From positions 30,001-62,000 of the forward strand of contig JAPZAR010000018.1 of NCBI GenBank assembly GCA_027460535.1: DNA of 32,000 nucleotides, read 5' to 3'. Under the pieces are notes generated by a model. That model ran no database searches. It was given only the letters and a program-made list of their open reading frames with translations, and was not told the DNA's origin. Shown piece by piece: positions 8,583-29,733 of the stretch (positions within the stretch are counted from its first letter, which is position 1; every line of letters begins with the position of its first letter). A program made the translations under genes and the position numbers. Source of the stretch: Candidatus Methanoperedens sp. Lineage in GTDB: Archaea > Halobacteriota > Methanosarcinia > Methanosarcinales > Methanoperedenaceae.

Positions 8583-8834
8583 TCACAATGCCCGGATATC
8601 ACCGCTTTCAACCACATCCGTTGGTACTCCATCAAGTTCCCCGGGCACGATGTCCTCCTCTCTTAGCTCTCTCTTTGGTTTTTTTTTCATCACATAACAT
8701 ATGATGGCGGGCTTATTTGACTTCCTGCCGCCAATGACCTTGTATCCGGTAGCGCAACCCACCACTCCTTTCTTTTTTAAAAGAGCGGATTCATACTTGT
8801 TCTTTATCCTCTTTGCTTCTTCGATTGTAGCCAT
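8583..8834 (-). CDS. small protein paralogous to the N-terminal (pro-domain-like) region of the adjacent S1 protease
   Basis: 83 aa. GVVGCATGYKVIGGRKSNKPAIICYVMKKK...IVPGELDGVPTDVVESGDIRAL aligns with residues about 18-79 of the upstream 336-aa protease (NVVGVMTGYKIRGEEKTRELSIICMVEKKV...IPKKIDDAVTDVIEVGKIRAL). It stops exactly at the shared IRAL boundary. Confidence 0.7.
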   Translation of the reverse strand: MATIEEAKRIKNKYESALLKKKGVVGCATGYKVIGGRKSNKPAIICYVMKKKPKRELREEDIVPGELDGVPTDVVESGDIRAL

Positions 8835-8860
8835 TGTTTCATCTCGATGTCGCCATCATG

Positions 8861-9871
8861 CTAACCAGTGACAAGATCTGCATTGAGAAGGTCAAGATAT
8901 TTCTGTATGTGGTTAGCTATCGTTATTGTGTCGCTTCCTGCGAAAAGCTTACCTACAGCATAGCCCTCCATATCGAGGATAAGGCTTCCGCTGTCACCAC
9001 CTGCTGAGAACCCAGGCTGGCCCACAATTATCTGATCTTTGAAAATACCTGTCCGCCCCCCGTCGTAATCGACGCTTACGGTGGCATCCACTGCTGTTAT
9101 AGGACCGTCCCTTGTAAGACCCGTGGTCCTTCCGGATTTCTGGACGTGCATATCGAGCTGTGCCGTTCTTGTTCCATTTGGAATACCAATCTCCAATATC
9201 TCCGCTTTGGCATCTCTTTCATTGTTCAACTCGATGATGGCGCCATCCACATAGTTATCCTCTGGTACCTGCACTACCGACATGAGCCTTGTCCTGCGGC
9301 TTGCTGCGCTGGCGGGGACATTGTAGAGTCCGCTCCAGAGCTTTCCGACCGGGCATTCGCTTGGAACGCCGCTGAGGTTCAAATGCACAAAGCGCAGGAG
9401 CCTGCCTATCTCATCATTTGGCCGCCTGCCGCCATCAATAGGTCCGGGCTGAAGATAGGGGTCGCCGATATTTACTTCATTGGAGTTGGCTCCCACATGG
9501 TTATTCGTGCCTATGCACAGCTTACCCGAGGCCCTGTCCCTGACCAGCTCCCCGTTTGTGCCTGCGGTTATCAGGTAATGTCCGCCGGATGTGCCCATGG
9601 GGCAGGGGCGAAGGCGCGACTTCCTGTCGACCTGCAGGGCCCTTATCTTCCCGACCTCTATGACGTCTGTAACCGCATCATCGATCTTTTTAGGAATGAG
9701 GTCACCTGATTTCAGCGCTGATACTTCGACTTTCTTTTCCACCATGCAGATTATACTCAGTTCCCTGGTCTTTTCTTCTCCTCTTATCTTATAGCCCGTC
9801 ATCACGCCGACGACATTTGCCTTCTGTAAGAGCATTTTTTCAGATTTTATTCTTATTTCTTCCAATTTCAT
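8861..9871 (-). CDS. trypsin/chymotrypsin-fold (S1, PA clan) serine protease with N-terminal pro-domain-like region
   Basis: 336 aa. Candidate triad contexts are GTNNHVGANS (His), NYVDGAIIEL (Asp) and FSAGGDSGSLILD (the GDSGS serine motif). KSGRTTGLT is also typical of this family. Confidence 0.8.
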   Translation of the reverse strand: MKLEEIRIKSEKMLLQKANVVGVMTGYKIRGEEKTRELSIICMVEKKVEVSALKSGDLIPKKIDDAVTDVIEVGKIRALQVDRKSRLRPCPMGTSGGHYLITAGTNGELVRDRASGKLCIGTNNHVGANSNEVNIGDPYLQPGPIDGGRRPNDEIGRLLRFVHLNLSGVPSECPVGKLWSGLYNVPASAASRRTRLMSVVQVPEDNYVDGAIIELNNERDAKAEILEIGIPNGTRTAQLDMHVQKSGRTTGLTRDGPITAVDATVSVDYDGGRTGIFKDQIIVGQPGFSAGGDSGSLILDMEGYAVGKLFAGSDTITIANHIQKYLDLLNADLVTG

Positions 9872-9913
9872 TTTTATTCCCCTTCATATACTCAATAACA
9901 CTTTACATCTTAC

Positions 9914-10270
9914 CTATTCAGGTATCTTGAAGAACAATGGCGGAATCAGCGTCCACAGGATAAGCACTATGGAGCCCATCCAGCTCTGGTACCAGCCCAT
10001 TGTAACAAAGGGCCCTCCTATTGCGAATACCCAGACCACGAATGAGATCGATGAAATTGCGTATTGCAACGGGTTCGTGACTCCCTGGAATTTTCGCAGA
10101 TACGGGGTTACCAGGATTAAAAGTACAGCTGATATCCCCCATAACCACATGGTATTTCCTGCCGGGATCAAACCTGCTATTGTAACATACGCAGCGATTA
10201 TCTCGCTGGGTATTAATTTCAGTAGTATCTTTGCATAGTCATCTGTTTCTACATTTATTGCTCTTGGCAT
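9914..10270 (-). CDS. small integral membrane protein, unknown function
   Basis: 118 aa with three to four hydrophobic helices (IIAAYVTIAGLIP, LWGISAVLLILVTPY, AISSISFVVWVFAIGGPFV, GSIVLILWTLIPPLFF). I recognise no motif. Confidence 0.6.
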   Translation of the reverse strand: MPRAINVETDDYAKILLKLIPSEIIAAYVTIAGLIPAGNTMWLWGISAVLLILVTPYLRKFQGVTNPLQYAISSISFVVWVFAIGGPFVTMGWYQSWMGSIVLILWTLIPPLFFKIPE

Positions 10271-10461: not shown

Positions 10462-10644
10462 TTATTGCGCTCCTGACTTCATGAGCCTCTGCACAGCCTG
10501 GTTGCCTATAGTTCTTTGAAGAAAGAGAATTTGTTCAACAGGTGAACTGAGTGGCTGGCAGAAATTACCTTTCTGCACCTGTGATACCTGATTCTCTTTT
10601 TTTGTCTCGGGTGCTTTGACCGCTGTCTTGAAAGCTTCGCCCAT
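10462..10644 (-). pseudogene. orphan truncated effector leader (first 59 codons of the DUF4157-type leader, then loss of homology and a stop)
   Basis: MGEAFKTAVKAPETKKENQVSQVQKGNFCQPLSSPVEQILFLQRTIGNQAVQRLMKSGAQ* matches residues 1-59 of the 663/712-aa proteins. Nucleotide homology to the other copies ends at about 10465. Confidence 0.75.
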
Positions 10645-10731
10645 TTGTTATTTCCCTAAAAATTAAATGTTCATATATAGATTTATTAGCTCTTAACACT
10701 TCAAACTGCTAAGAAAATTGTAAAGACTATT

Positions 10732-10923
10732 CTATGGACTTCCAGCCTCTACTCCGTTTGATTTTAACTTTGAAATCGCATAAATTTTTTTGTTATCCTG
10801 AGACATCTTTTCAATCTTTTTCTGGTTAATGACCTTTGCCTCATAATCATTCCAAGCAAACCATTTTTGATTATTCTCGCAGTAAAACAAATTTAGGCTG
10901 GGTATAGGGTTAATTCTTACCAA
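10732..10923 (-). pseudogene. 3' fragment of a YkgJ-type Cys-cluster gene (remnant copy A)
   Basis: CENNQKWFAWNDYEAKVINQKKIEKMSQDNKKIYAISKLKSNG matches the C-terminus of the intact 218-aa gene at 15462..16118 (CENNQKWHVWNDYEAMVINQEMMEKISQDNSKIYAISKSKSNG). The upstream part of the ORF is unrelated sequence. Confidence 0.7.
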
Positions 10924-10965: not shown

Positions 10966-13104
10966 TTACAAACCATCAAGGAATTCTAGTGCTATTCGCC
11001 TTCTTTCGACAAAATCAGGCAGATATGAACCTGGTATTAATCCTGTTATTTCATAGCGGTAACGAATAAAATCTTTATTCTGTCGCAAGAAATTTCTTAT
11101 CTCATCAATCCATTCTTCATGACCAGCTTCTCGATAAACTTGCGCATGGGCATCAAAAACGTCATTAATATCAAAGAATGTTTTTCTCGGAAGATGACTT
11201 GGTACTTCGGCAGAGAAGTAGGCATGATCGCCTGCCTCCAGAGCAACACTACGGCCTTTTGCCGTTGGGATTCCAAAATATTCCATTAACCTATCTTCAA
11301 GCAGATGGTGGGCTTCAATTGTACTTTCATCTATTCCACGCCGTCCTGTAAGTCCTGTTTCTCTTACATAATTGAGGACCTCATCGTAATTTCCAAATAT
11401 ATCTCCTTTAGGCCTTATCTCCACTGTTGGGTATCTAGCGTCAGGCCATATTGCTTTTGAAGGGCCCATTGGCTTATAACCAGCCTTTATTAGTTGTTCA
11501 TACATCGGCGAGAATGTCTCTCGAGCCGTTACCGCTACAGGTTCTACCTCTCGTACTCCAGCAGAGGCGAATTCATCCATGCGCCTTATTATGAGTTCTG
11601 CCTTGTTTAGCTCCTCTGCTGGAATTTCACCCCCCTGGCGTATTAAGAGAGTCCAACTTGAGATCCGACTTCTTTCTGCTTGAGTTAGATTTGAAGCAGC
11701 TTTAACAATATCTGCAATTTCGTCGGGGTGACGTCCAATTGATTTAGCTATACGTGTTGCTCCACGCAGGGCACCACCCCCTGCTAATGGAAGTAAAGCG
11801 CCAATTCCCATTAAAACTAAATCTGTTCCAGTTAAGGGTCGTCCCCATTTATCATAACCTTCAAAAATTCCATAAAAAAATTCTGCAATATCTGTGAGGT
11901 CACCTACTACAGGTATTAATCCTATGGCAGTGTCGGTGATTGCTTTTGCAAAAATTTGTTCATTTGGTTCATAGTAAGTCGCTTCAAAAGTTGTCAGTTG
12001 ACGCCCAACAGGCTTAATCGATGTCCCTTGAACAGGCACTTGAGTAACACTAGGAACCTCATATACTTCTAAAATGGGATCCGCTAATTCAATGTTTCCC
12101 AATACAACTTCTTGCTTGGGGGTTTGAGCTTCTGTTGCTCTATTTACGAAAAATTTTGTGGAAGGTGTTTTTACTACTTTTATTATAGATACATTTTTAG
12201 GATAACTAAGAGCCAAAGGGTTAGCTGGAATCAATTCATAGGCGAAGCGAGCCGTGCCCAAAAAACTTGGTGCTGTGATTTCAAATACATCCCCTGAAGC
12301 CGTGTGTATTATATCAATCCCATCAGGGCGTTTCTTGACAACAAGAGGAGGAGGACCTGCTACTCCGTAAACAGGTTGCATTCCTACATAATGTGATGGA
12401 ATTACTGGATCTCCCTGAAGTGGAACAAGTGCAGGGTCTTGGACGCGATAAATTTCAAGTGATGGATACTTGGGACCTAAAATACATAACTCTGGATAAC
12501 CTTCTGTCCGAATTGAAACCCCTGGTGCAACTACTAACCGAATGATTGGATAATCCCTTTTTTCAAACGAAGTTAAGAATTGATAAGCAAATGGTGCTTT
12601 TGCGATTCTCACTTCAGGACTTACTTCTAAAATCACGCGTATTTCAGAAGTAAAATATCTATAAATTAATGTACCGCCCGATGGAGATACCCTGGCATCA
12701 AAAGAGTATTCTGTTGGTATTGTATATATAGCGGTCTCGGTTCCTTCTTCTTTTATCGGTTGCCGCTTCAGTTCATCATTTTCACATTTCGGGCATGCCC
12801 TCTGAATGCTGGGTGTACCGCTGGATACTGCCTGCGGCTGCGGCATCCTCATCACCGCATCCGCTACCCTGTCAGCTTCCCGCTCATAAACATCGCCGGG
12901 CGCGCCTATCCTGAGCTTTGCCTGTAGCGCTCCTGACTTCATGAGCCTCTGCACAGCCTGGTTGCCGATGGTTCTTTGAAGAAAGAGAATTTGTTCAACA
13001 GGTGAACTGAGTGGCTTGTATAAATTACCTTTCCGCACCTGCGAAACCTGATTCTCTATTTTTTTCTCAGGCGCTTTTACCGTTGTCCTGATTGCCTCAC
13101 TCAT
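10966..13104 (-). CDS. polymorphic-toxin-like effector: shared N-terminal leader, tandem beta-rich domains, pre-toxin TG-like domain and a C-terminal module with an AHH motif
   Basis: 712 aa. Residues 1-120 share the leader (LFLQRTIGNQAVQRLMKSG, EREADRVADAVMRM, CPKCENDELKRQPIKEE), but the HExxH DUF4157 core is missing. LIPVVGDLTDIAEFFYGIFEGYDKWGRPLTGTDLVLMGIGALLPLAGGG resembles the PT-TG pre-toxin domain. IEAHHLLEDR lies in the C-terminal module. AGGAGA Shine-Dalgarno 6 nt upstream of the ATG. Confidence 0.8.
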   Translation of the reverse strand: MSEAIRTTVKAPEKKIENQVSQVRKGNLYKPLSSPVEQILFLQRTIGNQAVQRLMKSGALQAKLRIGAPGDVYEREADRVADAVMRMPQPQAVSSGTPSIQRACPKCENDELKRQPIKEEGTETAIYTIPTEYSFDARVSPSGGTLIYRYFTSEIRVILEVSPEVRIAKAPFAYQFLTSFEKRDYPIIRLVVAPGVSIRTEGYPELCILGPKYPSLEIYRVQDPALVPLQGDPVIPSHYVGMQPVYGVAGPPPLVVKKRPDGIDIIHTASGDVFEITAPSFLGTARFAYELIPANPLALSYPKNVSIIKVVKTPSTKFFVNRATEAQTPKQEVVLGNIELADPILEVYEVPSVTQVPVQGTSIKPVGRQLTTFEATYYEPNEQIFAKAITDTAIGLIPVVGDLTDIAEFFYGIFEGYDKWGRPLTGTDLVLMGIGALLPLAGGGALRGATRIAKSIGRHPDEIADIVKAASNLTQAERSRISSWTLLIRQGGEIPAEELNKAELIIRRMDEFASAGVREVEPVAVTARETFSPMYEQLIKAGYKPMGPSKAIWPDARYPTVEIRPKGDIFGNYDEVLNYVRETGLTGRRGIDESTIEAHHLLEDRLMEYFGIPTAKGRSVALEAGDHAYFSAEVPSHLPRKTFFDINDVFDAHAQVYREAGHEEWIDEIRNFLRQNKDFIRYRYEITGLIPGSYLPDFVERRRIALEFLDGL

Positions 13105-13117: not shown

Positions 13118-13344
13118 GAAATTAATCGCATAAATCTTCCTTTTATCTTGATTGATAATTTCCTGGTTAATCACCTTTGCCTCATAGTCATTCCAGACAT
13201 GCCATTTTTGATTATTCTCGCAGGTAAAACCCCTGCACGGCACAGGGTGGTGGTCGCAATGCGCAGCGGTAGGTCTTCCTGTCTATATGAACGCAGTAGC
13301 CATCAGTATCGTGTGCGATAAGATATGGTCTTCCGAACTCCCAT
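13118..13344 (-). pseudogene. decayed fragment of the YkgJ-type gene (remnant copy B, frameshifted, terminal codons and intergenic region deleted)
   Basis: The nucleotide sequence aligns with 15486-15722 (for example gccatttttgattattctcgcaggtaaaacccctgcacggcacaggg). A small deletion relative to the intact copy shifts the frame (...gcattgcgaccaccaccctg versus ...acagtgcgcgaccaccgccctg). The track shows no ORF here. Confidence 0.7.
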
Positions 13345-13368: not shown

Positions 13369-15360
13369 TCAATAATGTTGTTTGGGTATGAAATCTCCTG
13401 TTGCAGCTTTGGCGGCTTCATTTCGACCAATCACGTCTTTCTTGTAAATTTTAGCATCCGTCCCCGATCCATTATATGCTTCTATGGCAGCGTCCCAATC
13501 CTTAACTCCGTTTCTTTTTTCAAACAACCACCGAACTGCCGTGCGAATCCAGTAGTCATAATCGAGATTTCGGGCTTTGGTCGTTTCAGTAAAGAATTCC
13601 TCAACTGCTGATTCCCATCGCGTGTCCGTGGTGAAGAAAACGTTCCAGCGATCGCCGTTTTTAGATCGAGAATTGATCGTATCCAATTCCGACTTTTCCG
13701 CGGGCGTTATTGATTTGCCTTTTGCTACAAGTTTTTTTCTGCGTGCTTGAGCATCAAACATATCTTTAGTTACCTGATCGAGATTGTGTTTGATCGCGAT
13801 AGCTGGACTTATTTCCTTGATCATCAAAATTTGCTGATCTCCAGAGCTATCAATAGCCTGACCTATATTGAAACGGGTCATCCGTTGCCCTTTCGTATAT
13901 GGTGGAAGTTTGAGGAAATCTCCCAGTGTCCCCATGTGGGACTCCTGATACAACATTGATTTCACCAGGCTGGCATCCAATGCAAGCCATTTCTTTGGCG
14001 AACCGATGTTCTTATTGTAAAACGCTACCCATTTTACAATACTTGCATCGAAAGCATTGAACATGGTTTCTTCTATCAAAGCTTTGTTCAGTAATGTGCT
14101 TTGTGGGATGATGGGAATTTTTATTCCATCTGCTTCTATTTTCAAATATTCGGGAAGTGTAGCAGAGGTGTATCCTTCTCCCGTCAACTTGTATTTCAAA
14201 TCTTTAAGTTCGGTTTGCTTCACATTCATCTGGCGCTGCCATTCGGCTTTTCCATTGTCGGTCGTATACTTTTTTTCCTCTGCCTTCCAATCAGACACTA
14301 CTTTTTCCTGATCGCTGATTTTCTTTTCGAGTACGGCATATTTTTTTTCTATGCTCGCAACACCTGCATGGTATTGAGATAAGCCCGATTTGGTGTCGCC
14401 TGCTGGAACCAGAATATTTTTCTCGATAGTGACGGAGGTAACTTTACTGCCTGATGTGAAATTGGCAGTGACTGAGGTTTTGGTGTTCGACCATGCAGTA
14501 ATGACCACACTGCTTCCTTTGGGAAGAGTAAGGTCAGAAACCTTCAACTCTTTGTTGAGTATAAACATTTTCCCGATCATCTCTTCCACGGCATCTTCGG
14601 GTAGGAATCGCTGAACAATTCCAAGGCTCGATAGTCCTTGTTGCACAACATGCGTAAGCTCATGTGCCAGCAACTGCCGCCCATCAAGCGTTCCGGGCGC
14701 ATACTGCCCGGCTCCAAAGGCCACATCCTTGCCTACTGTAAATGCGAGTGCATTCAAATCCCTCGCAGACTTTGCAGCCCTTTCGTCTGTATGCAACCTC
14801 ACCTTAGTGAAGTCATGACCGAATCGTGGCTCGAAAAAGGCGCGGTCGTTTTCTGATAAAGACTGCCCTCCACCCTTGAGGGACTGGATTTTTGATTCAA
14901 TATCAGGATTTATTTCAGAGATACCACCAGAAGTTGTCTTCCCCTGAAGCTCTTCCTCCTCTTCTTCGACTGGTTTCCTTTGCAGCTTCTCCTCTTCGTC
15001 TTCTTCTTTTATCGGTTGCCGCTTCAGTTCATCAATTTCACATTTCGGGCACATCCTCTGGATGGAAGGTGTACCACCGGATAACGCCTGCGTCTGCGGC
15101 ATCCGCATCACTGCATCCGCTACTCTGTCAGCCTCCTGCTCGTAAACATCGCCTGGCGCGCCTATCCTGAGCTTGGCCTGCAGCGCTCCCGACTTCATGA
15201 GTTTCTGAACAGCCTGGTTGCCTATAGTTCTTTGAAGAAAGAGAATTTGTTCAACTGGTGAACTGAGTGGCTGGTAGAAATTACCTTTCTGCACCTGTGA
15301 AATCTGATTCTCTTTTTTTGTCTCTGGTGCTTTGACCGCTGTCTTGACTGCTTCGCCCAT
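13369..15360 (-). CDS. DUF4157-type effector: shared leader, acidic linker, HExxH DUF4157 domain, coiled coil and a C-terminal lysozyme/SLT-like domain
   Basis: 663 aa. Leader as above, then RAFFEPRFGHDFTKVRLHTDERAAKSARDLNALAFTVGKDVAFGAGQYAPGTLDGRQLLAHELTHVVQQG (DUF4157-type core). The C-terminal region carries SMLYQESHMG, NIGQAID and AIEAYNGSG, which resemble lytic-transglycosylase motifs I-III. Confidence 0.85.
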   Translation of the reverse strand: MGEAVKTAVKAPETKKENQISQVQKGNFYQPLSSPVEQILFLQRTIGNQAVQKLMKSGALQAKLRIGAPGDVYEQEADRVADAVMRMPQTQALSGGTPSIQRMCPKCEIDELKRQPIKEEDEEEKLQRKPVEEEEEELQGKTTSGGISEINPDIESKIQSLKGGGQSLSENDRAFFEPRFGHDFTKVRLHTDERAAKSARDLNALAFTVGKDVAFGAGQYAPGTLDGRQLLAHELTHVVQQGLSSLGIVQRFLPEDAVEEMIGKMFILNKELKVSDLTLPKGSSVVITAWSNTKTSVTANFTSGSKVTSVTIEKNILVPAGDTKSGLSQYHAGVASIEKKYAVLEKKISDQEKVVSDWKAEEKKYTTDNGKAEWQRQMNVKQTELKDLKYKLTGEGYTSATLPEYLKIEADGIKIPIIPQSTLLNKALIEETMFNAFDASIVKWVAFYNKNIGSPKKWLALDASLVKSMLYQESHMGTLGDFLKLPPYTKGQRMTRFNIGQAIDSSGDQQILMIKEISPAIAIKHNLDQVTKDMFDAQARRKKLVAKGKSITPAEKSELDTINSRSKNGDRWNVFFTTDTRWESAVEEFFTETTKARNLDYDYWIRTAVRWLFEKRNGVKDWDAAIEAYNGSGTDAKIYKKDVIGRNEAAKAATGDFIPKQHY

Positions 15361-15722
15361 TGTTATTTTCCTAAATTAAATATTCTCATATGTATATAAT
15401 AACTTTTAACATCTCAAACTGCCAAGAAAATTGCATGACTATTCTATGTACTTCCAACCTCTCATCCATTTGATTTTGACTTTGAAATCGCATAAATTTT
15501 ACTGTTATCCTGAGATATCTTTTCCATCATTTCCTGGTTAATGACCATTGCCTCATAATCATTCCAAACATGCCATTTTTGATTATTCTCGCAGGTAAAA
15601 CCCCTGCACGGCACAGGGCGGTGGTCGCGCACTGTGCAGTGGTATGTATTCCTGTCCATATGAACGCAGTAGCCATCAGAATCATGTGCGATAAGATACG
15701 GTCTTCCGAACTCCCAGCGGAT
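14626..15722 (-). repeat. reference copy (C) of the dispersed effector-junction repeat: ykgJ-like 3' end, intergenic region, leader, acidic linker and DUF4157 core
   Basis: Its parts recur at 10462-10925 (copy A), 12745-13344 (copy B) and 17641-18375 (copy D, without the ykgJ part). Long stretches are near-identical at nucleotide level, for example ggttgcc-nnn-gttctttgaagaaagagaatttgttcaac and ttcttttatcggttgccgcttcagttcatca. Confidence 0.85.
15361..15461 (-). promoter_or_regulatory. conserved AT-rich intergenic region with a TATA-like box upstream of the effector leader
   Basis: Read on the minus strand: ...aaaagttattatatacatatgagaatatttaatttaggaaaataacaATG. A homologous copy precedes the orphan leader (10645-10731). 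The segment is deleted upstream of the 712-aa gene (13104). A promoter role is inferred only from the AT box and position. Confidence 0.3.
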
Positions 15723-16118
15723 GATGCCCTCATCCACATCCTGTTTAGACAGGGCAAAAGGAAATTTGCAGCACATAGCCTTGCATGTATGCAGCCTGCT
15801 CTCGCAGTCCACTTGGGTTTCATGTTCGAACGTGTATTTGTCTTCCTCCGGATCCTGATACATAAGTCCCATGCCACTCTCTACGAACTTCTTTACCAGC
15901 CGCTCTGCGACCTGATTTTTCCGCTTGTCCAGTTCCTCGATCGAGATCAATCCCTTTTCGCTGAGCAGTTCGATGACTGCATAGAGGAATGAGGTTGATT
16001 CTAAGGTTTTTTTGGTATTGGAATTGATGCGGGTGTGGGTGTAGAGCAGACCTTCGGCTAATTCCTTGTGTTCTTCACGCAATAGCTCTTTATTTCTAAT
16101 TTGAGTTTCTGTTTGCAT
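15462..16118 (-). CDS. YkgJ/UPF0153-family Cys-cluster (CxxCxxCC-type) putative Zn/Fe-binding protein
   Basis: 218 aa. VDCESRLHTCKAMCCKF...DSDGYCVHMDRNTYHCTVRDHRPVPCRGFTC fits the YkgJ pattern (C..C..CC ... dG.C ... C.i...RP..Cr). Its 3' end is duplicated at 10732-10923 and 13118-13344. Confidence 0.75.
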   Translation of the reverse strand: MQTETQIRNKELLREEHKELAEGLLYTHTRINSNTKKTLESTSFLYAVIELLSEKGLISIEELDKRKNQVAERLVKKFVESGMGLMYQDPEEDKYTFEHETQVDCESRLHTCKAMCCKFPFALSKQDVDEGIIRWEFGRPYLIAHDSDGYCVHMDRNTYHCTVRDHRPVPCRGFTCENNQKWHVWNDYEAMVINQEMMEKISQDNSKIYAISKSKSNG

Positions 16119-16482: not shown

Positions 16483-18375
16483 TTAATAATGCCCCAGCTC
16501 AGCCTTGGGTAAATCGAGCTCATTAATGAAAGGCACATTTCCAGACCGCCTATGTTGCAAGACCCAAAAAGCAATGAGTGCCGGTGAATACAAATCGGTT
16601 GTGTCAACTCCGAAATCATCACAAATAAGATACTGGAGTTCTATGTCATAGATGCGCAAGCTGAGATTGATACTAAAACGCGTAATACGGATACTTAAGC
16701 CCTGGGTTCCACCGATGATAGCTTTCAACGCCGTGCTGTCTGAGAAACCAAAGCTAACAGCAGGAACTCCCGCCGTGGGTAGAGTGATAGCGTTGCAATC
16801 GATCACTCCCGCAGCATCCATGCTAGTCAGCTGACGTTCGATTTCCCGGATCACGCTAGCGTGCAAGCGCGAGAAAGTCCCTGAAACAAGCGCATCCGCG
16901 CCCAGTGTACTGGAACTGTCATGAGTAAGCTTGGTTCCCGTGCCACCAGAGAAATGGGTCACCATCCTCAACCCCTCCGCACCAGCTAGTCCGCCCAGTT
17001 CCAGGCGCATGCGGTTACGTAACTGGAAATCGAGAGTAAGGTGGTCAGCCTCCCATACAGCTGCCTGTTGTGCAACATTAGTACCTTTTAGTGGAGGAAA
17101 ATCATTAGATCTAAAATCTGCATCCGCACCACAAGCTCCACGGTTAAAGATCTCTCTGGGCATAGCAGTACAGGGAATAACCCTAGTCTGTATCGGCCTT
17201 GGCGGAATCAGATTAGGAGAGCCTCCTCGCATCTGTATGGAGACACGTCGGTTTGGAGAATATGATGCTGCAAATTCAGAGGTTTCGCCATGGGCAAACA
17301 TTTCTATATCGGAGGCAGGTATACCAAGTCCTCCGCTCGCCGGGCTCATAAGTGCGTTTTTGACAGCCATGGCGCGGTTGCACGAGAGAGTCCAGTTGAG
17401 GGAATCGGTACCTTCGGGGCTGGCGTAACCATCAAGACGTAAATTCTCGTTAGCGCCAGAAGCGTGCCAATTGTTAACAAAGTTGTCGATGGCAGTCTCG
17501 TCACTGGAGCTCAGGTTAGCACTGTTTACTCGGAATATGATGTCTAGATTAGAGACACCAGGAGAGTCATGCGCGATTGGGCAGGCAAGACCACTGGGTA
17601 ATTGGCTTGGATCACCTATGCGCTGAATTTGCGGTTGCACCAAGCCACCACTTTGTTGCACCGCATGCGTCAACTCATGCGCAATTAACCGCTGTCCCTC
17701 GATCGTTCTAGGTGTATACTCCCCCGCTCCGAAAACCATATCGCTGCCGATAGTGAACGCCCGCGCATTCACCGCTCGAGCCATTTCAGCCGCCCGTGTA
17801 TCTATGTGCAAACGCACCTGGCCGAAATCCTGGCCAAAACGCGGCTCGAAAAAGGCGCGTTCGTTTTCTGATAAAGGCATGCCTCCTCCTTTGAGAGACT
17901 GGATATTTGATTCGATATCAGGATTTAATTCAGAGATACTACCTGATGTTGCTTTCGCCTGAAGCCCTTCCTCCTCTTCTTCTACTGGTTTCCTTTGCAG
18001 CTTTTCTTCTTCGTCTTCTTCTTTTATCGGTTGCCGCTTCAGTTCATCATTTTCACATTTCGGGCAAGCTCTCTCGATGTTGGGTATACCACTGGATGAT
18101 GCCTGCGGCTCAGACATCCTCATCACTGCATCCGCCACCCTGTCAGCCTCCTGTTCGTAAACATCGCCGGGCGCGCCTATCCTAAGCTTAGCCTGCAGTA
18201 CACCGGATTTCATGAGCTTCTGGACAGCCTGGTTGCCAATCGTTCTTTGAAGAAATAGAACTCTATCAACCGGTGAAATTCTGGTTTTTGAACAACATGG
18301 CTTTCTGGTCTTTGATACAAAATTCTGACTATTTGCCTCATGCTTTTTAACTTCTATTCTAGATATATTGCCCAT
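16483..18375 (-). CDS. DUF4157-type effector: shared leader, acidic linker, HExxH DUF4157 domain, OmpA-like peptidoglycan-binding domain and an unknown C-terminal domain
   Basis: 630 aa. RAFFEPRFGQDFGQVRLHIDTRAAEMARAVNARAFTIGSDMVFGAGEYTPRTIEGQRLIAHELTHAVQQSG is the DUF4157-type core. IIFRVNSANLSSSDETAIDNF...LRLDGYASPEGTDSLNWTLSCNRAMAVKNAL...IEMFAHGETSEF...PNRRVSIQM is OmpA_C-like. GGGAGG lies 5 nt upstream of the ATG. Confidence 0.88.
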   Translation of the reverse strand: MGNISRIEVKKHEANSQNFVSKTRKPCCSKTRISPVDRVLFLQRTIGNQAVQKLMKSGVLQAKLRIGAPGDVYEQEADRVADAVMRMSEPQASSSGIPNIERACPKCENDELKRQPIKEEDEEEKLQRKPVEEEEEGLQAKATSGSISELNPDIESNIQSLKGGGMPLSENERAFFEPRFGQDFGQVRLHIDTRAAEMARAVNARAFTIGSDMVFGAGEYTPRTIEGQRLIAHELTHAVQQSGGLVQPQIQRIGDPSQLPSGLACPIAHDSPGVSNLDIIFRVNSANLSSSDETAIDNFVNNWHASGANENLRLDGYASPEGTDSLNWTLSCNRAMAVKNALMSPASGGLGIPASDIEMFAHGETSEFAASYSPNRRVSIQMRGGSPNLIPPRPIQTRVIPCTAMPREIFNRGACGADADFRSNDFPPLKGTNVAQQAAVWEADHLTLDFQLRNRMRLELGGLAGAEGLRMVTHFSGGTGTKLTHDSSSTLGADALVSGTFSRLHASVIREIERQLTSMDAAGVIDCNAITLPTAGVPAVSFGFSDSTALKAIIGGTQGLSIRITRFSINLSLRIYDIELQYLICDDFGVDTTDLYSPALIAFWVLQHRRSGNVPFINELDLPKAELGHY

Positions 18376-18663: not shown

Positions 18664-19647
18664 CTATTTTCTTCTCATTAAAAAATATACTATCAAGATT
18701 ACAATAACAAATCCAAGAATAAATACAAGAGTAAATTCAAACATTGGGGACTTTTTCAATGTTGGATCCAATTTATATGCTATGTTAAGTGCTTCTTCTC
18801 CTTCTTCTGTTCTACCTAAGTTATTAAGAACAATCCCTTTTCTATACCATGCATTTGCATACTCCGGTTCTATCGCCAGCGCCTTATTATAACTTTCCAG
18901 CTCTTCTTCATATCGTCCTAAATTACCCAGGGCAAATCCTTTGTTATACCATGCAGAAGCTGATTGCGGGTCGATTTCCAGCGCCCTATCAAAACTTCTT
19001 ATGGCATCTTCATGTCTTCCTGAACTATCTAGGGCAATTCCTTTATTTTTCCATGCATTGGCATTCTTTGGATCTATCTTCAACGTCTTATCAAAATATT
19101 CTATTGATTCATTATATTTATTAAGACTTGAAAGAGATAATCCTTTTAAAAATAATGCATCAGTGTCATCTGGATTTATTTCCAGTGCTCTATCATAACT
19201 GCTTATGGCATCTTCGTGTTTTCCCCATTTAGCAAACGTTATTCCTTTCATAAGCCATGCAGAATTATCCTCTTGATTTATCTTCAATGCTTCTTCATAA
19301 CTTTTTATTGCTTCTTCATATCTCCCCAAATTACCAAGGGCGATTCCTCTCTTATCCCATGCAACAGTTAATTTCGGGTTTAATTCCAATGCTTTATCAT
19401 AGCTTTCCAACTCCTCTTTATGTCTTCCTAATTCACCAAGGGTAGTGCCCATGTTATACCATGCATTCGCGAACTGTGGATCAAGCTGAATAGCATTGCT
19501 AAAAGCTTCAAGCGCCCCCTCATAATTTCCGGCCTTTTCTAAAGTAATACCCTCTCGGTTCCAGTCAGATGCAGTTTTTGCACCAACTGCTGATATCATC
19601 AGCGACAATACGATAGACAATAAAATAATTCTTAAAATTTTGTTCAT
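18664..19647 (-). CDS. secreted tetratricopeptide-repeat protein (8 TPRs) with a C-terminal PEF/PGF-CTERM-like anchor
   Basis: 327 aa. The signal peptide is MNKILRIILLSIVLSLMISAVGA. Eight consecutive 34-aa TPR units follow (AxAWxxKGxALxxLGRxEEAxxSYxxALExxP). The C-terminus SPMFEFTLVFILGFVIVILIVYFLMRRK combines a motif, a TM helix and a basic tail. Confidence 0.85.
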   Translation of the reverse strand: MNKILRIILLSIVLSLMISAVGAKTASDWNREGITLEKAGNYEGALEAFSNAIQLDPQFANAWYNMGTTLGELGRHKEELESYDKALELNPKLTVAWDKRGIALGNLGRYEEAIKSYEEALKINQEDNSAWLMKGITFAKWGKHEDAISSYDRALEINPDDTDALFLKGLSLSSLNKYNESIEYFDKTLKIDPKNANAWKNKGIALDSSGRHEDAIRSFDRALEIDPQSASAWYNKGFALGNLGRYEEELESYNKALAIEPEYANAWYRKGIVLNNLGRTEEGEEALNIAYKLDPTLKKSPMFEFTLVFILGFVIVILIVYFLMRRK

Positions 19648-19812
19648 ATTACTCCATAGCTTATCGAGATTTCTCTAATATTATCTGCTCTCTTTATTTT
19701 CTATAAGTTTTTGATTTTTTGTATCGCTAACTGTAATGCATTCACTAACCATTGTATCCTGCTCCAGCGCAGGAGTAAAATGGGTAGATTACCGTGTAGG
19801 TCACTGAATTTT

Positions 19813-21546
19813 TCATGAAAATGAATAGATTGCCCACGGATACAAATTTTGCTGGCAATTGGGACAATTTCGTCGAAAGACTGAAAAGTCTATTTTATCG
19901 TTACAACTGGGACATGACAATTTTTTATCTTTGATTTTAATAAAAATATAAGTTACACATGAAAAAACAAAGAAAAAAACCATCGTAAGTGGTTTATTAT
20001 TAAGAGTTTCAATTGCATAGAATCTGATTAAGATATACAAGAATGATGATAGAATCGAAACAAATATGAAATTTTTTACTGCTTCTTTTTTATTAAAACT
20101 TCTCCGTATCAGAATTGATGAAAAAATCAGAATGTATAGCAATACAATTGAAAAATAGAGAGCATGCCAGAACCATGCTTTCGCTATATCTAGGAGATTG
20201 CTCATTATAGTATTAATTTCATAAAGGGAAATAATTGCGGGAAAATAAATTAATTCATTGGTCAACCATCCTAAACTGAATGCCATTGAAAATTTTATTA
20301 GATTTGAAATAGTAGTGGACGAAAAATAGTTCTTCTTTTCAATAAAAGTATCTCTTAATATCGATTTATGAAAACTAAGGCTTACAGGCAGCATCAGAAC
20401 AGGAACGATGAAAACAGAGATAATAGCTCTAAGACCAATATATATCTCTCCACTTGATTGATAGTTCTCATTTGCCATTGCAGCCCATTCAGAAGAAGAC
20501 AATGAAAAAATCTGATTGAAAAAAGGCAACGATAACTCAATTAAACCGTAGAAAAAACCAATACTAAATGCAATCCATAGACTTGGATCAAACAGGCTCA
20601 GATTATTTTTAAGGATCTGAATTCTTTCGTTTATATTCGGGTGAAATTTTTTTAGTAATTCAAATTTCGAGTACTGCTCTCCGCCACTTTCTTCCAGAGT
20701 TTTTACAATATTTTCAGGAGATCTTTCCCATTCAACAACTCTTGCATCTGCATAAAACTCTCTAATACGGATTATCTGGTTTCGCAATACATAGATAACT
20801 CCTAAAAAAATTATAAAATAAATAATGATCCCTCCATATAATGCCACTCTTTTTCCAATATCCATTTTAGAGATTATATAATCCATATCATATCCTGCGA
20901 GATTCCCCAAGTAAAATATGCTTAACGCAAGATATATTTCATATAATAGAAAAATTCCAAGCGGTACTGACAGGGTCAGGAAAAGCGACCGCCATGTAGA
21001 ATTCGCCAGATAAGTTTTTTCAACATCTCTGTTAACTATATGACCCATTTCATGAAGGAAAATCGTTTTGAAACCATTGAGATTTTCCCGAAACATTTTG
21101 ATCAGCCCGCCAGGAATACCAATGTACATATGATTTTTCGTACCAAAAGTAAAAGCGGACTTTGATGCATCCAGTGGTTGAACCATCAGCACAGGTTTTT
21201 TCTCTCTCGAAAAGTATTCACTATGTAGCTTTTCAATGTATTCATGGTGTTCTGGATACTTTTTTGGGTCAAACTCCTTCAATTTTGATTCTTTTTCAAT
21301 TTTTCCTGTAGATTTTTTATAATCCCTGTAAATCAAAATGGGGATAAATAAGAAAATCGGAATCACAATCAATAATCGGAGAATAAGCGTTATCTCAGCG
21401 CCGGCCATCACATAAAAAATAACAATCGCAAATATCAGAGCCCATAAAGATGGAACGATAATGCCAATTAAGACCATTAAGTAAAATCGAATATCGGTCT
21501 CCGAGATATACACGAAAGGATTTAAACGGATATCATTTTCGTTCAT
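19813..21546 (-). CDS. polytopic membrane M48-like (HtpX/Ste24-type) zinc metalloprotease with a C-terminal zinc ribbon
   Basis: 577 aa. HEMGH lies at nt 21040-21054 (FLHEMGHIVNRD), and the downstream REFYADARV is the M48 third-ligand ExxAD pattern. There are many hydrophobic helices. The C-terminal CPSCNDKIDFSVFRRNCPNCQ forms a CxxC...CxxC ribbon. Confidence 0.8.
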   Translation of the reverse strand: MNENDIRLNPFVYISETDIRFYLMVLIGIIVPSLWALIFAIVIFYVMAGAEITLILRLLIVIPIFLFIPILIYRDYKKSTGKIEKESKLKEFDPKKYPEHHEYIEKLHSEYFSREKKPVLMVQPLDASKSAFTFGTKNHMYIGIPGGLIKMFRENLNGFKTIFLHEMGHIVNRDVEKTYLANSTWRSLFLTLSVPLGIFLLYEIYLALSIFYLGNLAGYDMDYIISKMDIGKRVALYGGIIIYFIIFLGVIYVLRNQIIRIREFYADARVVEWERSPENIVKTLEESGGEQYSKFELLKKFHPNINERIQILKNNLSLFDPSLWIAFSIGFFYGLIELSLPFFNQIFSLSSSEWAAMANENYQSSGEIYIGLRAIISVFIVPVLMLPVSLSFHKSILRDTFIEKKNYFSSTTISNLIKFSMAFSLGWLTNELIYFPAIISLYEINTIMSNLLDIAKAWFWHALYFSIVLLYILIFSSILIRRSFNKKEAVKNFIFVSILSSFLYILIRFYAIETLNNKPLTMVFFFVFSCVTYIFIKIKDKKLSCPSCNDKIDFSVFRRNCPNCQQNLYPWAIYSFS

Positions 21547-22007
21547 TGTATCCCCATGAGCGTCAATTTTCCAATTATAGAATCAGCATAAAAACCTGCT
21601 TTCTGCTCATCTATCCCCATGGATAAAGCATCCTTGAATACATAATCTCTTAAATCCTTGATTTTCGCATTTGATGTATGAACCTCTTTTCCCCCTATTT
21701 TTTCTTTGATCTTATCCTCTAAAGCCTTTGCACCCTCCTTTTTTAGGGATTCGACTCCGGCCTTACCGATATGTGCTATAACACCCCAGATAAGCGGAAG
21801 AATCGTAGTTGTAATGAATACTTCTCCAACTCCACCTCCAAAACCCAGCATTTTTTCTTTTTTCTTAGGATCTTTCTCCAGAAAAGCATCAGGATTTTTA
21901 AGATATTCTTCTTTTATATCGTCGAATAAATCCAGTTCATCAGGTGCCACTTCTTTTATAATTTCATACGAAAGGCGAGACGCCAATTCTTCACTATTTT
22001 TATCCAT
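21543..22007 (-). CDS. hypothetical protein, translationally coupled to the M48-like protease
   Basis: 154 aa. Its stop overlaps the downstream start (ATGA at 21543-21546). GGTGGTGA Shine-Dalgarno upstream. It has one central hydrophobic segment (VFITTTILPLIWGVIAHIG) and Lys/Glu-rich flanks. I recognise no motif. Confidence 0.6.
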   Translation of the reverse strand: MDKNSEELASRLSYEIIKEVAPDELDLFDDIKEEYLKNPDAFLEKDPKKKEKMLGFGGGVGEVFITTTILPLIWGVIAHIGKAGVESLKKEGAKALEDKIKEKIGGKEVHTSNAKIKDLRDYVFKDALSMGIDEQKAGFYADSIIGKLTLMGIQ

Positions 22008-22184
22008 TTTTTCACCACCTTAAATCACATAATCAGATTTGGTTTTTAATGTACAGACCTCTTACTTGAAAGTCCAGAGGTATCAGTGTTAGTTCTGTCA
22101 ATTTTTTGGGATTTCTATAGTCTACCTGATCTTTTTGATTTGATTCAGGCGCGGGTACGGAATTGAATAATAATGAATATTTAC

Positions 22185-22988
22185 TCAGATGATATTGGTG
22201 TCAGTAAGCCACATATCCATCGTTGAAGTAAATTTATCGTAAAGGCCACCACCGGTAAAGACCGAAGTTCCAGAACGATAGAAGCCACCGAATCCAATAT
22301 GTGGCAGGTAATATTCGCGCACAATATAATCGTGGGATTGATCATCACATGTTTCCACACCCGCAGTTATCTGACACATCGGTTTATAATAACGTTCGGA
22401 AATTACTACTGCGGGACGATTGTTGATTGTGGTCTCGCCTATAGATTTCTTACGATTCAGCGGAAAAATAACCTATGAAACCTTCATCGTCATGTGAGTC
22501 AAACAGTCTAGCTGCCCTATGGTTAGTGCCATCATATTAACCGATATAAATGACTCCATCTCTTGAAGCCAAATATTTCACTTTGTTAATAGATAATGGA
22601 TAACTATCACCGGACAGCGTGTATTTGATGCGATGAAAGGTTATTTCACCCAAATCAGTCATGTCCCAAATTTCAGAATCGGTCAATTCTATAATTAAGG
22701 TTCCAGATATTGTGGGGTCACCAGAAGAAGCATACTCCCACGAATATTTCCAGTAGGCACCCTTAAATAATTTGATATCATCAAAACCTTTGTAAAGGAA
22801 AGTAGGTGACTTGCTGGTAGGGGTCTCAGTTATAGTTGGAGTGTTCCCTCTCTTGTATGATGTTGTAGTTGGTTGAGTTTCTTTATCGTTTCATTCCATA
22901 CAGCTTTTTCTTGCACACAGCCACTTATAAAAACAACTACACTCGTCAATAATCCCAAGAACATTATCATTCTTAATTTATTAATCAT
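22185..22988 (-). pseudogene. decayed lipoprotein gene (two frameshifts plus an in-frame stop)
   Basis: The ATG at 22988 gives MINKLRMIMFLGLLTSVVVFISGC (signal peptide plus lipobox Cys), and that frame stops at 22830-22832. The coding signal continues one frame over from about 22890 (NDKETQPTTTSYKRGNTPTITETPTSKSPTFLYKGFDD...ASRDGVIYIG). It is interrupted by TAA at 22537-22539 and continues (YDGTNHRAARLFDSHDDEGFIGYF). It then shifts frame again near a T5 run at about 22470 (...NRKKSIGETTINNRPAVVISERYYKPMCQITAGVETCDD...TDTNII*, ending at 22185). The 22185..22379 track ORF is only the last piece. Confidence 0.55.
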
Positions 22989-23122
22989 ATTCCCACCATC
23001 ATTTTAATTATATTACCTAAGTAAATATTTTTCGAAAGATAAAAGCGCGTTAAGAGCAAAGTGGAATATTATTTTTGAGAGAAATGAAATATAGTTTCCT
23101 ATACGTCAATAATCCAATTTCT

Positions 23123-23353
23123 TCACTCTGTTATTGGCTCAGATTTAGGAATTCTTTCTAACTGGCTTGTGCTAACCGACTCTATCTGCCTCTCTTTCAC
23201 CAGTTCCTCTTCAAGCACCTGGATCGCACCACTGATGCGCAGCAGTGTGTTCCTCAGGTTCGCCTGTTTAATTTCCAAGTCGGAGAGTGCTTTTTGACCT
23301 GATTCGAATTCGGTTCTCAGTTCTTTGAGACGATGCTCTAATCGTTCTTTCAT
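23123..23353 (-). CDS. small coiled-coil protein downstream of the tail fibre (possible fibre accessory or chaperone)
   Basis: 76 aa with heptad-like, Leu/Glu/Lys-rich sequence (LKELRTEFESGQKALSDLEIKQANLRNTLLRISGAIQVLEEEL). A strong AGGAGG lies 7 nt upstream of the ATG, 13 nt after the tail-fibre stop. Confidence 0.6.
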   Translation of the reverse strand: MKERLEHRLKELRTEFESGQKALSDLEIKQANLRNTLLRISGAIQVLEEELVKERQIESVSTSQLERIPKSEPITE

Positions 23354-23366: not shown

Positions 23367-26300
23367 TCAACTTGAATATACGAATATATCGATAACCCCT
23401 TTTCCTGACTCATGCCTATCAAGGGCTTTTCCTATAATCGTTCCTGGTCGAAATAATTCTTCACCTTTAATTTTTATAGGACTGGCTTTCATAGCATGAC
23501 CAGGGATTGAAGAAGATGTTAATAAATTTCCCCTTTTTATCGGACCATTTTCATCAACAACTTTACAGGGAACACGACCACACAGGGCAACAGGAAATAC
23601 CTTTTCACCGTCACGCTTTGTATTTAACAAGAATCCAGGTGCAGTCGATATAACTCCGAGGACTAAACAGTCATCCGGCTTTTCCGATATGATGATTCTA
23701 TCCTCGTCCTGGTCCAAACGAACAACATCTCCAGGTTCAAGATCCATATCTGAAGAATAGTTCTCAGCTAGGTCGCCAACCAAACCGGTTTTGAAACCAT
23801 AACTTGAATACATTGTTCCCTCTGCTTGCACATCACCTGCAACATGCAGCGCGCATACTGGGTCCGTTGTCATGATGCCGACGTAGCCTTTATTATAGTA
23901 AATACGCCCGGCGATAGAACCATCAATCCATTTGCTTGCGCCAAAAATATTTTTTAATCCTGAGCCATCGCCAACAAACGCATCCGCCTTAACTGTACCG
24001 ATGACTTCTAATTCTTTTGATGGCGTTATCGTACCGATGCCGACATTTCCTTTATCGTAATAGATACCGCCAGCAGCATCAGACCATTTGCCTGCGCCTG
24101 TTAACTGTGAGCCATCGCCTATGAATTTCGTTGCGCTGACAGTTCCATTAACTGATAAATCGCTGGCAGCATAAGCGTTCCCCACGAAGATATTGCCATT
24201 AATATCAATTCTCATTTTCTCTTTACCGTTTATCCTAAACTCCAGACCTTGAGAATTGCCTTTGACATCAATGTATGAAGTATCATCGTTATCTCCCTTG
24301 ATATCCAGACAGATTTCTCCCTCATCACCGAGACGCAGATGGCTACCGTTCCAACGCCTTCCGAGTAGCGTTAAAGAAGGATAACCATTGCCGATGATTA
24401 AAAGCCCTTCCTTATCATAATCATCTGGAACATATTGATCTTCGCCTGCATAAGTAAATTCGCCAATCTGGAGCTTTCCTGATGGGCTCTTTGTACCGAT
24501 GCCGACGATGCCATTATAAAAAATACTATCAGGGACTGCACCATCTGACCATTTGCCTTCATTGATACCTGTTAATCCTGATCCATCGCCTATGAACTTA
24601 TCTGCCTTAATGGTGCCTATAACAGATAGTCTATCGGTTGCAGATGGTGGTGTCCCGATACCCACGTTGTTCTTATAATAAATCCCGGCAGGGTCGCCGA
24701 GCCATTGGGTTTTACCGGTTAACTTCGAGCCGTCACCTATGAACTCCTTGGCTTTGACAGGGCCGTCAACGTATAAATTACCTAATAATTCCACATTACC
24801 CTTTCCATCAATACTGATTCTGATCAATTCCCGGGTCATGAGATAAATAGAATTGGACCCACCCATCGAGTTAATTTGCAGGCCACCTCCACCAGTACCT
24901 TCAGCCTGAATCCTGATATCGCTGTTTGTATCCTCAGTCGAAAGCCTTAATGCGTAACCGTCATTGCTTTTCACATCTAACCCATAACCTGGCGTGGATG
25001 TGCCAATGCCAACATTGCCTTTATCATAATAAATCCCGGCAGGGTCATTGAGCCATTGGCTGGCTCCTGTTAACTGCGAACCATCACCTAAGAACACATC
25101 TGCTTTAACAGTGCCGGCGACCTCTAATTCATTTGACGGCTTATCCGTCCCGATACCGACATAGCCGCCATTACGGTTTATATAAGTATTTGCAGCGCTA
25201 TTATTTATTAACAAGGCTTCAAGCTCTTTTGACCAGAGAATATCCGCTTTCTGTGTGCCATCTTCATAGAAAGATATCACCGGGTCGGGTATGAATTCTG
25301 CCAGCATTGGTACGGGGGCCGGACTGGAACCATGGATCCTGACATAATCACCTGACATAGAATCAATCGGTTGAACAAGAAGATCCCCGTTCCTTACTTC
25401 AAGTTTTGATTCCGGATTCAGCGTCCCAATACCGACATTCCCCATAATCTCGGCATTTTCGGCTAAATTCAATGTATCTCCTGAGAATCCAGATGCATTA
25501 ATGTTAGTGGCTTTAACTGTGCCATTAACGTGCAGTAGTTTTTCAGATGGTTCATCGATACCTATGCCAACATTGCCATCGTTATCAACAATCAGGGCAG
25601 GGTCAGGAGAGCCGTCTGAACCCACGAGTTTGCTGTGCTTATGGAGTTCATCTGCAATTGAAGCATCGGTCAATTTAAGCACATTGTCACCGTAAACTAA
25701 ATCTAACAAATTATTTTCAAGACCGATTTTCCATTTGCTATTTTTCTCAATAGCCTCCTCTCGCCATATTATCTGGGCATTTGGTGCTGTCCCACCCCGA
25801 TAAACCTCTAAACCGCCATCACCAATAAGCGGTTTTTTATTCCCGGGGGGTGGATAATCATGTACTGTAATGATATTGTCTGAAATTACTACTCCTTCTT
25901 TCCGGGTCCCTTTGACTGTAAGATTACCATCAATCGTACAATTACCATCGACTGCCAGATTTTTATCACCCGGATCAGATGTGCCTCCGATGTGCAGACC
26001 GCCGGGCATCCCGCTTTTTACCTCAAGCGTCCCATTAACAGTGCAATTGCCATCTACGACCAGATTTTTATCACCCGGCTCAGACGTGCTTCCGATACGA
26101 AGACCGCCTGTGAAATTCGTTAAAGGAGAATTGATTTGAATCCCGTTTTCAGCATCAAACTTCTTTCCCTCGATAGAAAGTGCGCTTTCTTCCCCATCCA
26201 CAGATAGCGCCAGTTTACCGTAGGCTCCAGCATAAATGCGGTCTTCATTTTCGATATGGACATGTCCATCTATCAATTTGACCTTTGCCAGTATGATATG

Positions 26301-26771: not shown

Positions 26772-26843
26772 ATTTTTACCTCCTTGTTTTATTATAATCA
26801 TTTCTCTTAATATCTTTAAACTCACTCGATTTCCATTGACAGA

Positions 26844-29712: not shown

Positions 29713-29733
29713 GTGTTGCCTCGAAAGAAAAAA

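Follow-up and report, generated by a model that had tools for sequence, protein, structure and literature searches.

The 32,000-nucleotide stretch of DNA analysed here (the window, part of the 44.9-kb ENA contig ERZ27247940:k141_291425) holds the effector-encoding 3' end of an extracellular contractile injection system (eCIS) locus in a metagenome-assembled genome of Candidatus Methanoperedens, a methane-oxidising archaeon, where a leader of about 120 amino acids (aa) opens three minus-strand open reading frames (ORFs) of 630, 663 and 712 aa (p630, p663 and p712) and one 60-aa remnant. This leader is probably an N-terminal particle-association (cargo-loading) tag of DUF4157-type eCIS effectors. 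The choice and loading of eCIS cargo are poorly understood, which limits the use of these systems as programmable protein injectors, and the leader would offer a candidate loading tag for DUF4157-type systems, a large and mostly uncharacterised group with archaeal members. It is already published that an N-terminal loading signal can be separated from DUF4157, that DUF4157 is an eCIS marker and that eCIS-associated effectors (EATs) without DUF4157 lie beside DUF4157 genes. Apparently undescribed is the nature of the region in front of the core: a strongly conserved two-helix module that can be defined by sequence, is found in both archaea and bacteria and is in some cases joined straight to cargo. 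A conserved leader of this kind would give a profile for effectors missed by the DUF4157 marker.

A previous sequence-only reading of the window had placed four-part leaders at the start of the three genes and a partial leader further downstream. All four parts, namely a Lys-rich start, an LQRTIGNQAV...GDVYEQEADRVADAVMRM block, a Ser/Gly/Pro spacer and a CPKCE-x-DELKRQPIKEE knuckle, were recovered by translation in each of the three, and the partial copy proved to be a 60-aa ORF with leader residues 1-59 followed by a stop. The copies are as follows.

12745-13104, minus strand: leader of p712 (aa 1-120), seen in the translation and as repeat family D1
13015-13104, minus strand: variable Lys-rich start of the p712 leader (aa 1-30)
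12841-13014, minus strand: conserved two-helix core of the p712 leader (aa 31-88)
12745-12840, minus strand: spacer and CPKC knuckle of the p712 leader (aa 89-120)
15001-15360, minus strand: leader of p663, seen in the translation and by repeat analysis
18016-18375, minus strand: leader of p630, with the first 30 aa divergent
10462-10644, minus strand: 60-aa leader remnant, followed by AT-rich DNA

Over the first 360 nucleotides the leaders of p712 and p663 are 87.5% identical in nucleotides and 85.8% in amino acids, those of p712 and p630 75.6% and 71.7%, and those of p663 and p630 74.4% and 67.5%; the remnant is 91.8% and 90% identical to the p663 leader. Judged by these identities, the similarity among the copies of the window is far above chance. 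A mosaic or gene-conversion pattern inside the leader was considered and is not claimed, the three copies being roughly equidistant beyond nucleotide 120.

The three full-length genes differ in what follows the leader, as listed below.

10966-13104, minus strand: gene for p712, the leader-only effector, without a Pfam or NCBIfam match and without HExxH
11944-12744, minus strand: conserved cargo body of p712 (aa 121-387), with BLASTP homology from aa 126
11761-11943, minus strand: PT-TG-like (pre-toxin) segment of p712 (aa 388-448), by alignment to the homologue P0272
10969-11760, minus strand: C-terminal region of p712 (aa 449-712), presumed variable toxin end
13369-15360, minus strand: gene for p663, with leader, acidic linker, DUF4157/eCIS_core and unannotated C-terminal cargo
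14881-15000, minus strand: acidic linker of p663
14635-14859, minus strand: DUF4157/eCIS_core of p663 (PF13699, E 5e-30, aa 168-242; HELTH)
16483-18375, minus strand: gene for p630, with leader, acidic linker, DUF4157/eCIS_core, OmpA-like domain and unannotated C-terminus
17644-17877, minus strand: DUF4157/eCIS_core of p630 (PF13699, E 5.6e-30; HELTH)
17245-17535, minus strand: OmpA-like domain of p630 (PF00691, E 2.7e-10)

As the sequence-only reading had claimed, p712 keeps the leader and lacks the DUF4157 core: neither an HExxH motif nor a PF13699 match was found in it, whereas p663 and p630 score 103.9 and 103.8 bits against a cut-off of 22. The protein is identical to NCBI protein O8C66_14255 of Candidatus Methanoperedens sp., and is intact and identical in several assemblies. 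Its homology with p663 ends exactly after PIKEE and its cargo body begins 5 residues past that point. From residue 126 to about residue 511 p712 matches a body found in eight other proteins at 30-40% identity (BLASTP, E down to 1e-84 for P0265-P0271). Over residues 339-455, p712 aligns with the part of P0272 that reaches the PT-TG (PF14449) cut-off (30.9 against 23.5 bits); on its own p712 lies below this threshold and P0266 gives a weak PT-TG match. Homologues reach only to about aa 510-550, the last 190 aa or so of p712 being unique, and the extreme C-termini vary among the homologues of the body. From these alignments, the cargo of p712 looks like a polymorphic-toxin-like body with a PT-TG region. 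Searches of Pfam and the PDB with the C-terminal region found no match, and an "AHH nuclease" assignment considered for it was dropped, without Pfam support; likewise, Pfam gave no support for an SLT/lysozyme identity of the p663 C-terminus.

The same body also occurs behind a core. In P0265 (966 aa), which comes sixth in a run of six eCIS_core genes, it stands behind a divergent leader and a PF13699 core, with the second leader motif located after the core. P0266 lies within an eCIS locus (L084), directly after Pvc16_N and an AAA+ ATPase, and had been considered as a leaderless free-standing body; this was rejected, as the long-read metagenome assembly is frameshifted and leader motifs, DUF4157 core and cargo body lie in three different frames at 8938-10253 of that contig, the 184-aa "leader-only" and 665-aa "leaderless" ORFs being artefacts. 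Since the body family occurs both with a core (P0265, L084) and without one (p712), p712 represents a precise module-to-module join. The idea that the leader can be fused on its own to unrelated cargo is thus borne out by p712, whose leader joins an unrelated body, and by leader-only fusions that recur in other lineages. As a separate observation, one homologue of the p712 body without a leader (P0270, locus L083, Thermomonospora echinospora) has Trypco1 and VWA genes as neighbours, and no eCIS gene was found up to 10 kb away; this type of body may also be used by another system.

Between p712 and p663, leader codons 31-88 carry 14 synonymous and 2 non-synonymous changes (non-synonymous rate dN 0.015, synonymous rate dS 0.451, dN/dS 0.034), whereas dN/dS is 0.36 and 0.44 in the two flanks. 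Selection thus acts on the protein, and the likeness is not just a matter of recent copying. Hence the two-helix core is kept by strong purifying selection without a DUF4157 core in cis.

Conservation of the leader extends well outside the window. A profile built from 16 leaders matched 23,976 clusters (50%-identity representatives) at E<=1e-3, 7,164 at E<=1e-10 and 525 at E<=1e-30, and nearly all of the 150 best matches begin at residue 1, that is, the leader is N-terminal. The size of the proteins in the first homologue search, at most 208 aa, reflects the length window of that search (about 1.75 times the query) and not biology. At least 547 leader loci were confirmed when species-representative genomes were scanned, the closest being 74% identical, with hosts in Methanosarcina, Methanoperedens, Methanotrichaceae, Bathyarchaeia and more than 15 bacterial phyla; about 60% amino acid identity is retained between archaea and distant bacteria. 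The residues L42, Q43, R44, T45, G47, N48, Q49, A50 and V51 are nearly invariant, as are Q61, K63, L64, I66, G67, P69, D71, Y73, E74, E76, A77, D78, R79, V80 and A81, and the helix motifs can be written LFLQRTIGNQAVQ+L.KSGALQAKL and GD.YEQEADRVA..VMRM. No Pfam or NCBIfam model covers the leader. Sequence searches of the PDB with the leader profile, p663 and p712 found nothing, Foldseek comparison of the predicted models (leader; leader plus core) with the PDB gave no meaningful match, and a full-text search for the leader motif strings in the searchable literature library returned zero papers.

An AlphaFold2 (AF2) model of the leader, computed from 104 sequences, displays residues 1-27 at a predicted local distance difference test (pLDDT) score below 50, helices at 35-57, 59-64 and 72-86 with pLDDT 71-84, and a tail of low-confidence coil at residues of about 90-120. 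The leader is therefore predicted to be partly disordered, with an ordered, recognition-like two-helix core. When the core was modelled together with the leader (p663 residues 1-256, 14593-15360), the DUF4157 core itself reached a pLDDT of about 90, helix 72-86 rose to 88-90 and helix 35-56 dropped to about 55.

Among the 150 best representatives the core is present in 124 and absent from 26, of which 16 are at least 240 aa long, that is, 16 leader-only proteins among about 140 full-length ones. The 78 genome loci contain 172 leader ORFs (136 with a core, 11 long leader-only fusions and 25 short fragments), and 47 of these loci have two or more leader genes; the frameshifts seen in L084 are a warning for counts of short leader-only ORFs. 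The core is carried by 79-83% of leader proteins and about 6-11% join the leader directly to other cargo. By Pfam, PF13699 is absent from the leader-only proteins, and their cargo includes Polysacc_deac_1 with LysM, VanY and PG_binding_1, with ankyrin-like domains also present. Their junctions fall at three places: immediately past MRMPEP, behind the Cys knuckle (the case of p712) and behind the acidic repeats. Consequently, the universal unit consists of the start and the two helices. The sequence-only reading had taken the whole four-part leader as the portable unit; the disordered start and the two helices stand as universal, and the Cys knuckle and the acidic linker turn out to be optional. 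Leader-only proteins match both helices as well as core-bearing proteins do, in a comparison biased because the proteins had been picked for high leader scores. A single breakpoint in the window is the basis for the idea that recombination or processing takes place at the acidic linker.

Separation of an N-terminal signal from DUF4157 has an experimental parallel in AlgoCIS. Its cargo proteins Cgo1 (UniProt A3HTB0) and Cgo2 (A3HTA9) share a common N-terminal domain (NTD) and DUF4157 and differ in their C-terminal domain (CTD); each of the two fills the lumen of the tube (Xu et al. 2022, PMC8894135). Deletion of the NTD abolishes loading, whereas deletion of DUF4157 or of the CTD does not, and the mediator of loading is Alg15, an AAA+ protein (preprint of May 2026, 10.64898/2026.05.27.728243). 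According to the same preprint, Photorhabdus virulence cassette (PVC) payloads are without DUF4157, and the loading sequences are disordered and not conserved between the three characterised systems. The likeness to the leader rests on architecture, with the order NTD, DUF4157 and variable CTD, genes in the eCIS cluster and paralogues with a common NTD, and p712 can be regarded as the natural counterpart of the AlgoCIS construct deleted for DUF4157. Unlike in AlgoCIS, the Methanoperedens leader has two helices strongly conserved across archaea and bacterial phyla, and its host is archaeal. As a leader-only fusion made by nature, p712 is in line with these deletion results; since the idea is already in print, the gain is incremental.

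These experiments also bear on an account in which leader and DUF4157 core form one unit, helix 2 and the CxxC knuckle acting as a pro-segment or docking helix, with p712 either drawing on the cores of its paralogues in trans or decaying. Such an account would fit the high share of leader proteins that carry a core, the many proteins of about 250 aa that consist of leader and core only, the gain in AF2 confidence of helix 2 with the core present, and the position of motif 2 behind the core in P0265, as if proximity alone were needed; Danov et al. (2024, PMC11297309) have moreover proposed for DUF4157 an action either in cis or in trans. The account is nevertheless unlikely, given that p712 is intact in several assemblies and its leader is under the constraint described above, that fusions of the leader alone turn up repeatedly in lineages unrelated to one another, both helices being fully conserved in them, and that AlgoCIS loading survives deletion of DUF4157 and not that of the NTD.

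The link between leader genes and eCIS was assessed across related loci, with jackhmmer seeds taken from the structural genes of this contig and from L084 genes bearing Pfam labels. Of the 35 loci that are 16 kb or longer, 25 have eCIS genes within 10 kb on either side of the leader, as do 34 of all 78 loci; these counts are lower bounds because effector arrays are long and the seeds few. The leader genes are strongly eCIS-linked. A recurrent order (Pvc16_N cap, AAA+ ATPase, one or more leader-plus-core genes, tube, YQBQ, spike, gp25, baseplate) is seen in at least seven loci from different phyla (L047, L051, L080, L010, L014, L078 and L075), with hosts in Acidobacteriota, Verrucomicrobiota, Methanosarcinales, Methanotrichaceae, Cytophagales and others. 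In 11 related loci an ATPase gene lies at most 10 kb from a leader gene, and in at least seven of these it directly precedes a leader-family gene. The leader gene that comes first behind the ATPase is in many cases very long (720-1752 aa) and recalls the DUF4157-bearing, tape-measure-like Tme of Streptomyces. The claim that the leader is a candidate packaging or recognition tag is therefore supported by its separability, by the low dN/dS of its core, by the eCIS linkage and by the AlgoCIS NTD results.

In PVC, a largely disordered N-terminal tag suffices for heterologous loading and the AAA+ ATPase Pvc15 mediates cargo association (Jiang et al. 2022, PMC9054023; PMC11495950). In relatives of the Methanoperedens locus, leader genes directly follow a Pvc15-like ATPase, whereas sequence similarity between the PVC signals and the leader was neither detected nor expected. 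That EATs lacking DUF4157 also occur beside DUF4157 genes has been described before (Geller et al. 2021, PMC8213781; Danov et al. 2024, PMC11297309), and in these studies DUF4157 served as the marker and the N-terminus was scored by composition only. In p663 and p630 DUF4157 is N-terminal, the C-termini are variable and toxin-like, and the genes stand where the eCIS operon has its 3' end, which makes both typical EATs. By location p712 also counts as one, since it lies at the operon's 3' end, within ten genes, and has DUF4157 within two genes, directly downstream of the PF13699-bearing p663; it differs in having no PF13699 membership, and the leader upstream of the core differs in having no Pfam or NCBIfam model. 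In Streptomyces, Tme carries an N-terminal DUF4157 on a long tape-measure-like effector in conserved synteny, and in Sle1/Sle2 a small DUF4157 protein binds the spike complex and bridges cargo without DUF4157 (PMC11126660, PMC13277306). The very long leader-plus-core protein placed first after the ATPase in several leader loci is reminiscent of this arrangement, although the Streptomyces systems belong to another lineage and have an intracellular mode of action. Finally, with its N-terminal trafficking module, body, PT-TG-like segment and variable end, p712 is built like the PT-TG polymorphic toxins (PF14449), but it scores below the threshold of that family and its presumed delivery is by eCIS and not by type V, VI or VII secretion systems.

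What the analysis shows is the anatomy of the leader, its conservation, the modular fusions, the purifying selection and the eCIS linkage; the loading function, the receptor and any cleavage are inferred. The proposed tag is made of a disordered, Lys-rich start of about 30 aa and two conserved amphipathic helices, the CxxC knuckle and acidic repeats being optional. A conserved component of the machine would recognise this tag, the candidates being the AAA+ ATPase or a spike/tube-initiator hub, and the tagged protein would be packed into the tube lumen and later injected. The zincin-like DUF4157 core would be an accessory for processing, chaperoning or adapting, dispensable in cis, and p712, with its leader joined straight to a polymorphic-toxin-like body, would be a natural example. 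Adjacency of the ATPase gene favours the ATPase as the receptor, and the location of Streptomyces DUF4157 proteins at the spike complex favours the baseplate hub.

Several observations weigh against this loading-tag interpretation. In 10 of the 35 long loci no eCIS gene was found within 10 kb of the leader. About 80% of leaders retain the DUF4157 core, and the two may work together; the AF2 model of leader plus core likewise hints that helix 2 packs on the core rather than on an external partner. Leaders of Bacteroidota/Cytophagales mostly keep motif 2, the knuckle and the acidic repeats and mostly lack helix 1. Some metagenomic "leader-only" or "leaderless" ORFs are frameshift artefacts, as shown for P0266. 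By analogy with the Streptomyces DUF4157 adaptors on the spike complex, the receptor may not be the ATPase, and no AAA+ ATPase was found in the window or in an extra 7.7 kb of the same contig.

The cargo behind the leader also bears on when the leader would act. It is often directed at peptidoglycan, with OmpA-like, LysM plus deacetylase, VanY, PG_binding_1, YkuD and M23 domains (examples are p630 at 16483-18375, P0151, P0182, P0254, P0280 and P0363). Peptidoglycan-directed cargo in an archaeal host suggests bacteria as the targets. A leader acting after injection, in membrane translocation or targeting in the recipient cell, would be in keeping with its amphipathic, conserved helices and with the membrane-active parts of the Streptomyces effectors Tme and Sle1 (PMC11126660, PMC13277306). 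This role is highly improbable, as the leaders of the window contain no hydrophobic or transmembrane segment, the same leader precedes cargo with different targets (peptidoglycan enzymes, a PT-TG toxin, ankyrin repeats) and the analogous NTD of AlgoCIS is needed for loading.

A further feature of the N-terminal regions is their content of [LIVM]QR tripeptides, which occur at 1.99 per 100 aa against 0.15 expected from composition (about 13-fold) and at 0.12 per 100 aa in the cargo regions. In 45 of 120 proteins one lies at most 40 aa after the core, including p663 (IVQRF) and p630 (QIQRI); examples are found in the window at 14600-15360 and 17620-18375 and in the representatives P0121-P0263. 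That these tripeptides are processing or cleavage sites, or recognition sites, is speculation. In a wider and rather doubtful version of the loading-tag interpretation, the two helices would be a near-universal tag of archaeal and bacterial DUF4157-type effectors read by one component, and the DUF4157 zincin, in cis or in trans, would cut the cargo free at [LIVM]QR. If so, a single hidden Markov model of the leader would retrieve every effector of these systems, those lacking DUF4157 among them, and the leader would be a transferable loading tag.

The leader copies of the window belong to a larger repeated unit. The repeated DNA reaches upstream of the leader into the 3' end of the preceding gene, which encodes a 218-aa protein (p218), as follows.

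15462-16118, minus strand: gene for the 218-aa CxxCxxCC-like protein p218, between p630 and p663 (PF03692, E 4e-4, sub-threshold)
13124-13343, minus strand: decayed copy of the 3' part of the p218 gene, immediately upstream of p712 (repeat families D4, D6 and D7; 78-94% identical to 15486-15716)
10725-10916, minus strand: second decayed copy of the 3' part of the p218 gene, upstream of the leader remnant (repeat families D5, at 89%, D4 and D7)

Taken together, both remnants are 66-94% identical to the p218 gene. Downstream of p630 the array thus reads p218 and p663, then a p218 remnant and p712, then a p218 remnant and the leader remnant. This order with decaying copies indicates that a unit of two genes was duplicated in tandem, after which cargo was replaced and decay set in. 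Homologues of p218 adjoin leader genes in eight other loci (L059, L005 twice, L006, L025, L048, L012 and L037), one of them gammaproteobacterial, and p218 may be a dedicated accessory or partner protein of the leader genes.

Such an array raises the question of whether the leader is mainly a DNA-level recombination handle for swaps of toxin cassettes, as in Rhs or contact-dependent inhibition (CDI) systems, without a role in recognition. Besides the tandem array with its decaying copies, homology breaks exactly at module borders, and in three more metagenomic contexts arrays of eCIS_core genes are mixed with gene fragments, transposase remnants and toxin-antitoxin genes. A handle working on DNA alone is very unlikely, however, as the protein is almost unchanged at a high dS of 0.45 and its roughly 60% identity between archaea and distant bacteria goes beyond what DNA homology alone would give; a recombination handle and a recognition tag are, moreover, not mutually exclusive.

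On the same strand, upstream of the leader genes, lie two Baseplate_J-type genes, Tail_P2_I, a fibre gene and genes for M48 and TPR proteins. The structural part is as follows.

23367-32000, minus strand: 3' part of the eCIS structural operon, by Pfam
23367-26825, minus strand: fibre-like protein of 1152 aa
26844-27860, minus strand: Tail_P2_I
27853-29712, minus strand: baseplate protein of 619 aa
29734 onward, minus strand: Baseplate_J, running past the end of the window

Past the window the contig (L003) continues with gp25, PAAR, spike, YQBQ and CIS_tube genes. Below position 8000 the genes are housekeeping ones, including CMD, SDR, CNNM and GatCAB, and downstream of p712 no immunity gene was evident.

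Three minor features of the locus were also recorded. Between the fibre gene and the effector array, 18664-22007 encodes a TPR protein, a 577-aa M48 (HtpX-like) peptidase and a 154-aa protein in DNA of low GC content (0.32-0.38); for the M48 and 154-aa proteins no counterpart was found in the 78 related loci. A segment of about 1.1 kb (22007-23123), between a 76-aa gene after the fibre gene and the 154-aa gene, has no ORF longer than 64 aa, and Rfam and tRNA scans of the whole window, this segment included, found nothing. At 8583-9871 a 336-aa protein and an adjacent 83-aa ORF show weak NAL1_N, Nal1_C and trypsin-like matches; both lie just downstream of the effector array and of a 118-aa membrane-like protein (9914-10270).

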